A stretch of DNA of 59,765 bases, the filler included, from Moniliella sp. 'wahieum' (taxonomy: Eukaryota), in assembly GCA_003971905.1 (NCBI GenBank). It is 2 parts of 2 records of this genome, joined end to end, with 100 filler letters (N's around TTAATTAATTAA, not from the genome) between each part and the next. Parts side by side here need not be neighbours in the genome. Positions count along the whole stretch, not along the records: positions 1 to 29,876 come from RSEE01000179.1; 1 more part is not named here. One strand, 5' to 3'. Made by a program: the position numbers and the translations under genes. Of the stretch, positions 13,304 to 57,798 are shown piece after piece (the first letter of the stretch is position 1; every line of letters starts with the position of its first letter). A model generated the notes under the pieces. The model saw only the letters and a program-made list of their open reading frames with translations, had not been told where the DNA came from and did not search any database.

Positions 13304-14148
13304 TGTCACGGGCTGCGGACCCAAGATGGTCCGACCTAAGCTAAGGCCCGCCTGCTCCGCACATGCCAAGTAGAGCGTGCACCGCAGGCCAATCAAGTGT
13401 GATGACGGTTGGCTAAATTAAGTACCGTGGCCCGAAGGGTCATGCTCCGTGCGACAATAGTCGCCCCCCGCCCAAGTCCAAGTCGGCCGGCCTAAATAAG
13501 GCCACCGAGCTTCCAGTGCCGTGGCGACGACTGTCGCCCCGTCCCCGTTTCCTTTTCCTTTCTCGGTCGCGCCTGCGGCGACCAACCCCGCTTTTGACAT
13601 GTCTTCCTTTCTACACACCCCTCTTGTATCCGTTTCCCTTTTTGATCCTGCCTGTACCCCTGGTTGATGGGGATCTTTTCCCCCACCTTCCATTCTCGTC
13701 ATCTCTCGTCTCCACCTTCGTCCCTTTCCCGCCTATCCTGTCCGACTCCTGCCCGTTTCCAGCCAATTGATCCAGTACAGGCAGCTCCTCTTGTTAGCGT
13801 CCGACATCTCCTCCGACTTCGTCCTCCAGCCCATCGCAGTCCAATCGCGCGAGCCCTCCTTCGGTCGCGGCGATTCCCAGTCCCAGTTAAGGCAGTGTTT
13901 GTCCGCCGCTGCCTCCTCCCGTCCCTAAGTCCCGGAGGCTTCAGACACGTTACTACGGCCCAAGCCGGTGCAGACGCAGCCTTGCCACACGTGCAGCCGC
14001 CCCATCAAAGGCCTCTCCTCGTCCCTAGCTCCGCTCGGACACACCAACCAGCCTAAGCCCAAAACTACCGTGAGTCGACCTACCGTCGCCTAAGGGATTG
14101 TACCCCAAAAACCCCAGGGCGGGCCCCTGGCGGCGCCCGCCCATGACA
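13304..14148 (+). mobile_element. solo LTR (about 845 bp), copy 1 of a dispersed retrotransposon family
   Basis: Termini TGTCACGGGC...GCCCATGACA (TG...CA with 9/10 inverted repeat); internal and 3' sequence aligns by eye with 45673-46195 (reverse complement) and 53240-53870; no matching TSD seen. Confidence 0.8.
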
Positions 14149-16433
14149 GCGGGCGGCTATTCCAGACTAACCCTTTCGAAGCTGTGGTACATGGATCCAA
14201 AGCTCTGGAACAGCCAACGCTACTCTACAGTTAGAGCTGCCAAGAACAGGGTACAGATTTCCTCCTACGCAGCCATCTCGGAAGTATTTTAAGTTCAGCG
14301 ACTGTGATTTGATGCATGCTTTTGTGGGGTGTGGCCTGGTGTGGTTCATCGATCCTGATCAAAAGCTCTTCGTGGTGTGTGAGGTGTATATGAGGCTGCA
14401 ACACATACTCGCACAATAAGGTGGGACACGTGCCTACTAGACATCGTATCACATCCACTCTCTCCGCACCATATTTTCCGTACTGCAGAGAGAAGAACGA
14501 GAACCTGGTGCTGAACCCCCGAGGCCGACTCGAAGCCCCTCTGTTTCTCAGCGCCCTGCAGGATGGGACGTCCCTGGCGGAAGGGGCTGTAGGGGCAATC
14601 GTAGATCACATCATAGGGTGTATAGGGGCGGGGTTGGTGCAGTTTTTGCGGCACAACCTTATACGTAGGACAGCGATACGCTCGATCGTGAGGACCCGAG
14701 CAAGTGCGACATGCGACATGCGAACGCCCTCCAGAGGCCCTTCAGAGGCCCTCCAGAGGCCCTAGCCTGCCCCAGCCTGAGAGACTCGGGCGCTCACATG
14801 TCACAGACAGGCCTAGAGGGAGAGAATAGGATCCATTGCTTCATAATCAAGGGTAGCCGGTAGGGCGCCAAAATATAGAGTCAGCGCAGTCAACAGCACA
14901 TCACACAAAGGCGGTTAGACAAAAACAAACATAAAAACGCCACTGCAACCTATACTGTCGTAGGGTTGGATCGTACTATAGCTAATCATTAACGTTTAAT
15001 CCAGTACACTGATGCGCCTCTCGTTGCAACATCTGTTGGCGCCGTAAGGGCAAGTAGGGCGGGTTCCGACCGGCTACGATGACTCTCTTCTGCGGTATGG
15101 GCGCACAGCTTAGATGCCCAGAAGCTCAGATGAGAATGTCGTACCGCGCAGCTATTACTACCGCGCGGCGACGCACCCTGCACGGCGTGCGTGGCGTGTT
15201 GGCTGTTTTTCCCGCTGGGGGGCGGGGCGCCAGGCGCCCCGCGCGCCCCTGCCCCACAACCAGCCTCCACCGTGGGGGCATCGAGGGTGCTGCGACAGGG
15301 AAAGGCAACCGTAAAGCTTACCGTCCGAAGCTCAGGCTGAGACGCTGAGAGGCCTGAGGCCCTGAGGTCTGATGCAGCTGATGCGGGTGGGCGGCATCTG
15401 AAGCTCTGTGGGGCGCGCTGAGGGAGAAGGGCACAGAGCACAGATCTGGGCTGATCGAAGGGATCTAGATCTCATGCGATGAGACACTGGTCTAACCAGT
15501 ACGATCGGGTTGATCATTGGGCTCTTGAAGTGAAAAAAGTTGATCCTTTTACTGGCTTCTGTAGCACGTGACATGTGTGGTGTGTGACACCCATGATGCA
15601 TGATGCATCATCCACATCGACATCATCTGCATCATCAACATCATCTGCATAATATCATCAACATCATCTGCATCGTCGACATGTACCGTATCATACGCGG
15701 CACAGAGTGACTCAGGACTCAGTTACTCAGCATACTCCATTACCCAGGACCCAGCACCTCAATACCGGGCCTGCGCCCACATGTCTGGCGTGACGCGCAG
15801 TCCAGTGCTGTGTTAGACGGATCAGAGAGTGCCCGTTTTTTGCTGGTCTCAATCATCGAAATCAACATCCCTACCATTAACAAGGCAATCAAAGCGGTGG
15901 CTTATTCCACCCACATCATCTCCGCGCGCCATTTATACACGCCGTGCCCCACGCCCACCATTACTTCCCATAAGAACACGCCTCCGAGCCCCATATTGTT
16001 TCCTTAGTTTGTCCATATGAAGCTGAAGCAGAGGACGTGATGCATGTAATGGATTTCCGAGTGCGCTGTTGGGAGGTGTTGCATAGTCCAAAAAGAAAGG
16101 GAAACAATGAGGGGCCGTCTGGATGTGTGTGTGTATATAGAGGAAGGTTACCGTCAAAATACCCGTAATACTAGCATTGTGAGGCTTGGACCCATGCTTC
16201 TACCGTCGCTTCAACATGTCATCATGTTATCCTCCTACCAACAGCTGCTTTCTCAAATGGTTTCCCCACCAGAGGGCGGCCTTTTGCAGCCCCAAAGGTG
16301 GATCTGGCAAAAGTGTACGACAGCTACAACCTACCCACGCCACGTGTATAACGCACAAAGATGCCAGAACAAAACATGGGGGCAAGCAAGCAAACATTCC
16401 ATAAGAGGGGGCGCATGGAGCATACCCCGGTCG

Positions 16434-29856: not shown

Positions 29857-29876
29857 TAGGGTTAGGGTTAGGGTTA
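29857..29876 (+). repeat. telomere-type (TTAGGG)n repeat at contig end
   Basis: tagggttagggttagggtta immediately before the N gap, G-rich strand pointing outward. Confidence 0.8.
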
Positions 29877-29976
29877 NNNNNNNNNNNNNNNNNNNNNNNN
29901 NNNNNNNNNNNNNNNNNNNNTTAATTAATTAANNNNNNNNNNNNNNNNNNNNNNNNNNNNNNNNNNNNNNNNNNNN
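29877..29976. other. artificial contig-joining linker
   Basis: 44 N + TTAATTAATTAA (stops in all six frames) + 44 N = 100 bp. Confidence 0.97.
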
Positions 29977-42725: not shown

Positions 42726-43165
42726 GTTTAACGTTTAACGTTTAGCGTTTAACGCGACGTTTAAACGCCTAAGATGGACAATTGTAGGACGGCCGTGCAC
42801 CATCGACCATGCATCATGCATCATGCATGATGGTAGCAGCCCGGGACGCGTGACGTGTGACGAATGACGCGTTGCATGACGCATGTCACATGTCACAATC
42901 ATACACTTGTCACACTTGTCACACTTGTCACACTTGCCTACGGGTGCGGTCCATGGCCTTGAATGGCCTGAGAGACGCAGGACTTATTGGGTCGATCATC
43001 TCGATCATCATGACATCATCGACATCATCGCTGGGCCGAGGGCGCTGAGCGCGCTGAGCGGTTGAGCCGTCGAGAGTCGAGAACGCAAAAGCTGAGGCAC
43101 CGAGTCACCGGTCATGCATCATGCACCTCATGCTTCTCGGCTGACCGGTGACCGGTGACACCTCA
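42726..43165. repeat. dense cluster of nnTNAnn 7-bp duplication arrays
   Basis: (GTTTAAC)n at 42726, (CATCATG)2-CATGATG at 42812, TCA-CATG-TCA, GATCATC-TC-GATCATC at 42994, CATCATC-GA-CATCATC at 43014, TGA-CCGG-TGA-CCGG-TGA at 43142. Confidence 0.85.
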
Positions 43166-44709: not shown

Positions 44710-45554
44710 TGTTACGGGGCGCTCCGGTTATCTCCGGTCGCTGAGCCCCGCATGTCGTAGACATCTCAGCCCTACACGCGTCAGCCGGTTAGACTAGCGA
44801 GAGAGAGCCAGTCGACACCTTATCCTTGCTGCGGATATCATCCGCAGCCCGCCATGGTCGCATGGCTTATCGGTACGATGCTTTGTGCCCATTGCGTCCA
44901 GTCTTGTCAGAACCCTTCCTGCTGCGCCCGACTGAGCAGCGTCAGCGCCTTGGAGAGTAAGGGCTGTGCATTAGTCTTTACCTTTCTGGGAAGTGCCCCG
45001 CATTCTGTCTATACCTGTCATGAGGCACTTGAGGCCTGGTTCCTTCTGCTGTATATAAGCAGCCATGTCTAAGGCTTGCTAGCTGTGGTCCTTGTCGACA
45101 TCCTGTCTATTACCGTTGGTCCCCCGACTACCAATTCCTCTCTCCCCTTCCCACCTTCTACCACCCTTACGCTTACGAATTTACGACTTACGTCGAGTAC
45201 ACTGCAAGCCGCGGTTACTCCATCAGTAGCGCTTGCTCTTCTTTAGGACTCTGTCTGTTCCCGCCAGCTACAGCGTACCGAGTGTGGTAACGCGGGGAGG
45301 AACGGAGTAACGCCGGAGCTCCGGACCCCTTCAGCTGGTCTAACGACCTACGTACGCGGCTCCTACCTCGGAGGGTCTGGACGGCGGCCTTTGCATGCAG
45401 GCAGCCACCCAAACTAGAGGGTCTCTCCCTAGCCTCTACACCCGCTCGGTTCAACCAGGATCTGGAGCAGGACCACGTACGAGCCACCGATTGATCTGTC
45501 CAAGGGTTAAACTACAGAGGGGTTTTCCAACCTCGGGACCCCCCCCCCATGACG
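44710..45554 (+). mobile_element. probable solo LTR (about 845 bp) of a related family
   Basis: TGTTACGGGG...CCCCATGAC(G) imperfect inverted termini; GGGGG on both sides (possible 5-bp TSD); internal TATATAAG at 45052; subterminal caagggtt at a similar offset as in the other LTRs; same length as copy 1. Confidence 0.5.
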
Positions 45555-56785: not shown

Positions 56786-57798
56786 TGGATCTCATATTTT
56801 CCTTTTAGTATCTGTTGCTGTAACTATCATTGGGCAGGCTGTACTCAAATATGTTGTTCACCGTCGTCCCGTAAGAGCTTCTTACCAAAAAACATCTGCT
56901 AGGTTTTAGCATTACTTCTTTTTTTTGCTGTGGCAATAGAAAAAAGAGAGGCACAAGAAGGGGAGTTGCGCGCTCTATATGAACTTGCGGGAAACGCAAC
57001 AGGAACCGTATCTCCAACTTCACGTAATGGCCTCTTGGCGCAGCGGTAGCGCGTGAGATTCCAGTAACAGGTATCCTCAAGGTCATCCGTTCAAATCGGG
57101 TAGGGGTCATCTTTTTTTCGTTCATCGATGACTTAAGCCTGATGACAACTATAGCTGGAATCGTATGCATCTCGTGCGCCACTGCTACGCCAAGACGAGC
57201 CCGCCAACTGTACAACGTCTGGAAAATCCACACATATAGGGCCCTCCCATGCGGAGACAAGGCAATACTTCTAGCTCACATGCACAGTGAGCACCTAATG
57301 TCGATCTGTGGGATTCAGATATTCAGTACTCGCAACATCATGCATCACTGTACTCAGTCAGGGGGGGTGAGATGATCATCGTCATCATCTGCATCATCGG
57401 CAGGTGGAACCCGAAAACCTACTATCGAGATGGTCTCCATGGCTGCCGGCCATGTTGTGGATCAAACGATGGGAGAATTGGATGCGGGACTGGGAACCGA
57501 GGCGATGCAAGCCCCTCCTGGACGGAGATGCCGGAGGGCATGCTACGCAAACGCCCCTACTGTGGCCAGGGGTCAGGGGTCAGGATGCAGCACGGGGGGA
57601 GTGCTACGGCCCCCCTGCGCGTTTCTGCTTGGCACGGACCACACCGCCGCAAGCAATCTTCAGCCATACCAGGGTCGTGTGTGGGTGGGCAGCATCGCCC
57701 CCCCCCCCCTCGCCTCCTGGCCTCAGGCCCCTCGTCCCGTAGCTGCCCGCCCCCAGAGATAGCCCCCGTGCGTTTTTGCTCTCTGTGGTTTTTGTGTT

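Follow-up and report, generated by a model that had tools for sequence, protein, structure and literature searches.

A heptamer array in Moniliella sp. 'wahieum' as the probable record of stacked excision footprints of an EnSpm/CACTA-related transposon

In the genome of Moniliella sp. 'wahieum' (GCA_003971905.1), an array of CATCATC heptamers joined by TG, GA or AA raises the question of how bases that are the reverse complement of an adjacent heptamer end came to lie between direct repeats. The window (the whole stretch of DNA that was analysed, 59,765 nt) consists of two contigs joined by an N linker (29877-29976), and positions 1-29876 are contig C179 of a 69.5-Mb assembly. Its genes are fungal (EMG1, a HAMP histidine kinase, PEPCK, and COX4), and the best named matches of EMG1 are found in smut-related basidiomycetes at 60-65% identity, which points to thin sampling of the lineage. 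None of the stop-to-stop frames of at least 150 aa overlaps the array. As in a hybrid or dikaryon, long regions are present in the assembly in two diverged copies (85-95%): window positions 1-29857 align to contig C64 (334623-365492) at 90-95% identity, and contig C17 aligns to C62, while no homeolog of the second contig of the window was found among 38 scored candidates. C179 ends (29857-29876) in three TTAGGG-type repeats within a tRNA-synthetase-like frame region, and the homeologous C64 continues for at least 14 kb beyond the point that matches this end; C179 stops either at a chromosome break that was healed or where the assembly ended. The surroundings also contain a solo LTR (TG..CA) at 13304-14148, which has about 600 genomic candidates, most of the aligned copies with 5-bp duplications, and which is unmatched at the corresponding place in the homeolog; another multi-copy LTR-like family of about 840 bp at 44710-45550; and, at window position 16078, a 185-bp insertion in the homeolog.

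An earlier note on this DNA had described a CATCATC array with TG, GA, and AA joints and had attributed the joining bases to hairpin opening. The array is real and is read at 15592-15686 as CATGATG CATGATG CATCATC CA CATC GA CATCATC TG CATCATC AA CATCATC TG CATAAT ATCATC AA CATCATC TG CATCGTC GA CATGTAC. Its parts are as follows.

15592-15605, unstranded: two CATGATG units, a palindromic TNA heptamer with a 7-bp period, of the commoner 7-nt scar class.
15606-15620, unstranded: CATCATC-CA-CATC-GA, decayed units; the homeolog has GA at the CA joint.
15621-15636, unstranded: CATCATC-TG-CATCATC, a full 7-bp duplication plus two P nucleotides derived from the right end; the match is exactly 7 bp.
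15621-15679, unstranded: an 18-bp unit (CATCATC TG CATCRTC GA/AA), in about three copies in the window and two in the homeolog on C64.

The homeologous array reads CATCATC GA CCTC GA CATCATC TG CATCGTC AAAA CATCATC TG CATCGTC GA and is 21 bases shorter. This comparison indicates that a block of two neighboring scars, the 18-bp unit, was duplicated in tandem secondarily, and that the TG joints go back to a single event. Thus, the three TG joints of 15621-15677 are present as described, but as copies of one unit they lose their independence. The CA joint was probably once GA. The AA joint, which had been explained as GA altered by CpG deamination, probably does derive from GA, the dinucleotide that the last 18-bp unit carries at this place; the CpG route itself is weakly supported, with CpG transitions in 4 of 12 one-mismatch joints and a mildly raised CpG divergence between homeologs (4.0% vs. 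2.9-3.4% for control dinucleotides; CpG o/e, 0.88).

Further joints in the window were examined in the same manner.

42908-42932, unstranded: a TGTCACA-CT array, an exception in which the spacer differs by one base from the CA that the rule predicts; the element described below likewise begins with CT.
42994-43009, unstranded: GATCATC-TC-GATCATC, which fits the rule and is also a direct copy.
43014-43029, unstranded: CATCATC-GA-CATCATC, with P nucleotides derived from the left end and a period-9 match extending 3 bases past the heptamer.
43044-43059, unstranded: GCTGAGC-GC-GCTGAGC, which fits the rule at a palindromic site.
57383-57398, unstranded: CATCATC-TG-CATCATC, a clean and independent second TG joint.

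Three of these joints (43014, 57383, and 42994) had been cited as recurrences of the junction types of the array, and all three exist; clean independent support comes from 57383 only, because the extended period-9 match at 43014 could be accounted for by slippage, and because at 42994 a direct copy would give TC just as the reverse complement of GA does, which makes this joint uninformative. Joints in which the match is exactly 7 bp are those at 15621 and 57383. Overall, 6 of the 11 TNA-centered heptamer pairs with a 2-nt spacer in the window fit the rule (15621, 42540, 42994, 43014, 43044, and 57383); the non-fitting rows are TGTTACT-TC (3713), GCTAAGC-TA (10526), the AA joint (15630), and TGTCACA-CT (42908 and 42917, one array). 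All nine TNA-centered pairs with a 1-nt spacer fit. A sequence of 81-89 bp, seen in stretch L073 of contig C34 (4880-4968), has hundreds of near-identical genomic copies, and CATCATC-TG-CATCATC precedes the copy here.

The rule, that the spacer reads as the reverse complement of the heptamer end next to it, was assessed for TNA-centered heptamers with a 2-nt spacer against heptamers with other centers. In a spread sample of forty 10-kb stretches from 40 places on larger contigs (400 kb), 27 of 35 TNA events fit, as against 4.8 expected, and all other centers were at expectation. In a 713-kb set, the window and further, non-randomly chosen stretches were added to this sample; with pure 1-3-bp repeats excluded and array members within 60 bases counted as one event, the rule was met in 56/76 TNA events and in 70/707 events with other centers (Fisher p ~2e-33). 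The comparison of short-spaced heptamer repeats with chance that the earlier note had proposed thus came out in its favor: the inserted bases equal the reverse complement beyond chance, at TNA centers only. At the 49 sites where a reverse complement and a direct copy differ, the former was found 34 times and the latter twice. The fitting events comprise 41 different heptamers and derive from the left end in 21 cases, from the right end in 33, and ambiguously in 2; both bases are wrong in 8 of the 20 non-fitting events (20/76).

For the unit of the array itself, CATCATCTGCATCATC occurs 50 times genome-wide and its reversed control not at all. A hand count of the first 100 of 503 rows of CATCATC-NN-CATCATC gave GA in 31, TG in 14, and AT, the product of pure CAT runs, in 28, with the remaining 27 spread among 11 other dinucleotides; spacers differing by a single change make up 15 of the same 100 rows. 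Decay of (CAT)n was rejected as the source of GA and TG, which differ from AT at both positions. CATCATC is the most frequent unit of both scar classes (6/56 for 9 nt, 10/379 for 7 nt), and about 17% of 7-nt scars have TTA or TAA centers. The 9-nt and 7-nt classes number 14 and about 146 at palindromic sites and 42 and 379 elsewhere; the similar ratio suggests that repair is not obviously guided by cohesive ends. The 9-nt joints show no excess of microhomology in their 2-base overlap (none in 34/56; background, 55%), and triples of GA and TG joints numbered five, too few to show a preferred order. The density of 7-nt scars is about 0.74 per kb, a figure that includes chance matches and array overlaps, and that of 9-nt scars is 56 per 713 kb; by extrapolation, the genome would hold tens of thousands of the former and a few thousand of the latter.

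With the site written as XY-TNA-ZW, 22 junction templates were counted for all 16 centers in 460 kb. Unambiguous TNA junctions numbered 91+73 (7 nt), 6+6 (8 nt), 9+17 (9 nt), 0+2 (10 nt), and 2 (11 nt), against 0-12, 0-2, 0-6, 0-1, and 0-1, respectively, for the other 15 centers. Only TNA is enriched, and only in joints that contain one intact 4-nt word, ZW+rc(ZW) or rc(XY)+XY (rc, reverse complement), together with 0-4 bases of the other. In the same 460 kb, one-base P joints (6, 4, 2, and 2) at TNA did not exceed the controls, nor did plain duplication (19) or the 9-nt joint of mixed type (0). The joints are even palindromes of the TGCA or TCGA type, with both heptamers undamaged and no flank base lost. 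It is the 9-nt class, in which both heptamers are whole and TG or GA is added, that fixes the geometry. Such a spectrum is what two flush hairpins, each opened at +2 to leave a 4-nt 3′ overhang, would be expected to produce.

The homeologous copies provide empty and filled states of the same sites. In 115 kb of homeolog alignment, there are 1840 indels, 1014 of which are of 1 nt, a frequency so high that some frameshifts may be assembly errors. Clean indels show a local peak at 7 nt (35 vs. 26 at 6 nt and 9 at 8 nt). With at most one mismatch, TNA templates fit 18/57 of the 7-nt and 6/23 of the 9-nt indels (best control center, 5 and 1), and none of the 44 indels of 8, 10, or 11 nt; strictly, they fit 8/35 and 2/8 of the 7-nt and 9-nt indels. 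The clearest case lies 175 bases off the array.

15860-15866, unstranded: AATCAAC, an empty site; the homeolog on C64 has AATCAAC-TT-AATCAAC, in which TT is the reverse complement of AA.

Empty and filled alleles thus exist at homeologs as unpolarized pairs, and deletion between the 7-bp repeats would also yield an empty allele. Thirty aligned copies of the solo LTR were uninformative, there being no 7- or 9-nt TNA insertion among their 12 insertions of at least 3 nt.

A transposon with the same duplication and target is present in the genome. Its copies are 4849-4968 bp long and 96-98% identical to one another, with terminal repeats of about 78 bp (88-94%) and subterminal repeats. A genome search free of any TNA constraint gave 12 ends, and 2 more lie inside those loci; all 14 start with CTCACTG, and the number is a lower bound, as the search pattern left out sites with A ten bases out. 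The first two ends came from the sampled stretches, and two of the approximately nine independent sites that the ends represent were located with a TNA-biased motif; the sites are all TCA or TGA and mostly CATCA-like. NN-TNA-NN directly adjoins 13/14 ends (background, 3.8% per position), and the fourteenth has GATGAAG plus CT. Four of the five end pairs, those on C20, C23, C34, and C35, show an exact 7-bp duplication, the units being GATCATG, GTTGATG, CATCAAC, and GATGATG; the last of these units flanks a 378-bp derivative on C20 and is CATCATC on the other strand. The fifth pair, on C11, lacks a duplication: this full-length element (stretches L118 and L123) is flanked by two different TNA heptamers, possibly as a result of rearrangement between two insertions. 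In one case, a scar already present (GATGATC-GATGAAG) has an end in its second heptamer. A common flank is seen on C8 (L126, 1499-1517) and C23 (L124, 450-468), where GATGAAG is followed by the end, in one instance with an extra CT; this CT, the reverse complement of AG, represents either P nucleotides added where an element end closed again or slippage of the element's own initial dinucleotide. The terminus CTCACTGAG (e.g., L128, 1511-1520) forms a palindrome centered on C and consists of CT and CACTG, the start of CNIRT6.

The affiliation of this element was sought in its frame remnants. Nine proteins related to a Tnp2-like protein encoded on C34, seven of them with PF02992, gave a profile that matched all four full-length copies in a search among 547 fragments (E 9e-11 to 5e-10). 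[quoted passage not shown] A direct Pfam scan of two element fragments, whose frames are broken, gave no match; a homolog search with its 159-aa fragment gave none among 132 candidates; and a metagenome scan with the terminal motif gave none. In sampled DNA, no CACGGGCG termini adjoin TNA. A de novo search of 944 kb for inverted ends with a 7-bp duplication yielded 11 weak candidates, none of them real, and missed the element because its ends lie in separate stretches. Relatedness to Tnp2 was thus found, whereas CA..TG termini and a 2-5-bp duplication are both absent, so that the element is not classed as a canonical EnSpm.

Two Tnp2-like (PF02992) genes, on C34 (L073, 5259-8872) and C17 (L071, 6181-8828; homeolog on C62), have no detected terminal repeats and for this reason were rejected as the mobile element. 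The gene on C34 is single-copy with long open frames, and the copy on C62 is split across several frames; these genes are candidate domesticated or helper transposases. A multi-copy sequence of about 1 kb near the C34 gene was also rejected as a transposon, since by eye it resembles a host gene family.

Taken together, the array is probably a pile of footprints left by repeated excision of a cut-and-paste transposon with affinity to EnSpm/CACTA (CMCT clade). As its flanks show, this element targets XY-TNA-ZW and duplicates the whole of these seven bases. Upon excision, each flank would form a hairpin sealed exactly at the boundary, as in RAG and Transib; the intact heptamers, the even-length palindromes, and the 7-bp duplication of the element indirectly suggest this flush sealing. 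A host nuclease, perhaps of the Artemis/Pso2 type, would then cut each hairpin 2 bases past the tip, leaving 4-nt 3′ overhangs, ZW+rc(ZW) and rc(XY)+XY, and end joining would keep one overhang whole while the other loses 4, 3, 2, 1, or 0 bases, giving +7, +8, +9, +10, or +11 nt. Since one overhang is always whole, mismatched overhangs may be ligated first, with one strand then favored by repair or the two strands segregating. Each scar offers two fresh targets, so repeated visits would stack scars, and ordinary tandem duplication then copies whole blocks, such as the 18-bp unit. At the loci examined, none was found both occupied by the element and scarred, and the link between element and scar is thus a geometric match and not an observed event. 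As the heptamers of the scars are diverse and the element sites narrow (TCA/TGA), other families may contribute to the scars.

Among the alternatives, it is unlikely that an element-free nuclease makes the scars, either a domesticated Tnp2-like protein (by cutting, transfer, and reversal at TNA) or another hairpin-forming enzyme, with the transposon merely sharing its preference. Such an activity would agree with the number of scars, which exceeds that of the ends found (14, a lower bound) by thousands to one, and with the two PF02992 frames without terminal repeats, one of which (C17) is retained in C62, albeit broken there. However, a 7-bp duplication needs a 7-nt staggered cut and fill-in before any hairpin, both of which integration supplies, and an element with exactly this duplication and target exists in the genome.

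Slippage on small pre-existing palindromes, in which a palindrome half and a heptamer are duplicated as 9 bp with no hairpin, is very improbable. It would suit the 19 of 56 fitting events in which the period-9 match extends by 2 bases or more, and the 18-bp unit is itself such a secondary duplication, but the match stops at the heptamer in 26 of the 56 and runs a single base past it in 11, the empty allele at 15860 has no neighboring TT, and the specificity for TNA is left unexplained. Among repeats of exactly 7 bp, 26/34 with a TNA center fit the rule, as against 26/145 with other centers, and a match of exactly 7 bp is not makeable by one slippage step, since a 9-bp slip would lengthen it. 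These events refute slippage as the sole cause, in line with the earlier contention that it does not predict the inserted bases; it remains a secondary amplifier.

Replication template switching yields short inverted copies of adjacent bases, and quasi-palindrome correction of this kind could add two reverse-complement bases beside a slipped heptamer. This origin is scarcely credible, as the fixed 2 nt, the fixed 7 bp, the TNA center, the left-right symmetry, and the lack of mixed joints would be unexpected, and a transposon matches the 7-bp unit. Equally hard to credit are footprints of hAT7, a hAT element that duplicates 7 bp. Such families are described in rust fungi (PMC12730594), and hAT excision generates P nucleotides (PMC5873905); according to the latter source, however, the palindromes of Ac/Ds are odd-length, with the complement of the final flank base at their center, whereas the joints here are even with both heptamers whole. 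Moreover, the element found resembles Tnp2 proteins. In Tc1/mariner footprints, constant element-end bases stay between the duplications, and PIF/Harbinger elements make a 3-bp TNA/TWA duplication; the former type was rejected because the spacers track the flank and not the element ends (CT or AG in 2 of 20 non-fitting events), and the latter because scars and element ends alike show duplications of 7 bp.

For the excision footprints of the EnSpm/CACTA relative, it is tempting to speculate further, albeit doubtfully, that a CMCT lineage not described so far, whose ends are CT-extended and whose duplication is 7 bp long and TNA-centered, has by re-landing on its own scars become the chief source of short tandem repeats in the non-coding DNA of this fungus; that the scars record EnSpm-like transposases cutting like RAG, with one fixed hairpin-opening position and joining of mismatched 4-nt overhangs; and that Tnp2-like genes without terminal repeats may keep the activity alive, in a RAG-like domestication. 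On the main reading, the scars would offer a fossil read-out, at base resolution, of target length, cut position, hairpin-opening site, and joining rule from genome sequence, as well as a route to tandem repeats other than slippage. Since the parent site can be predicted from each scar, transposition in the past could be dated and mapped in a genome that has lost almost all of the elements.

Fungal CMCT elements (CNIRT6, CNEST, Plavaka, and ESTA) share with the present element a Tnp2-like transposase remnant with an apparent H(3)H, terminal inverted repeats with subterminal repeats, and CACTG just inside the end: CNIRT6 starts with CACTG and has a 3-bp duplication, and the duplication of CNEST is TA (PMC12810828). 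The clade as described has 2-5-bp duplications and, in most members, CA..TG termini (PMC12730594, section 3.1.6), whereas the ends here are CT-CACTG and the duplication is 7 bp and TNA-centered. hAT elements (Ac/Ds, hAT7) share short palindromic insertions, putatively the flank hairpins and, in hAT7, the 7-bp duplication, but differ in the odd-centered palindromes of Ac/Ds and in the transposase family; hAT footprints in Candida albicans are shorter and more uniform (PMC5873905). In the literature searched, mainly open and, apart from the papers cited here, at the level of abstracts, no account was found of genome-wide arrays of palindromic footprints in basidiomycetes, of repeats derived from footprints, of hairpin footprints of CACTA elements, or of EnSpm elements that duplicate 7 bp. 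What comes closest is a set of 10-bp repeats in Ustilago maydis, for which an origin as transposon footprints has been suggested (PMC4081816); compared by description only, these too are numerous short repeats, in that case of a smut, interpreted as remnants of earlier transposition, but the passages compared give no palindromic rule, hairpin geometry, or matching element. The closest mechanistic parallel is with V(D)J coding joints and Transib, in which the flank forms a hairpin and the cut falls at the boundary (PMC12337333; PMC5499845), and with Artemis, which opens the RAG hairpins and whose main product is opening at +2 with 4-nt 3′ overhangs (PMC2175297); the array shares the 2-base even palindromes and, putatively, the flank hairpin, the boundary cut, and the +2 opening. 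This cutting geometry of RAG and Transib would thus be extended to an EnSpm-like element, for which the literature searched held no direct demonstration. Unlike V(D)J joints, however, the ends joined here are two copies of a 7-bp target duplication, and the scars pile up in a heritable genome; and whereas opening by Artemis ranges from +1 to +4, opening here is apparently fixed at +2, with one overhang whole.
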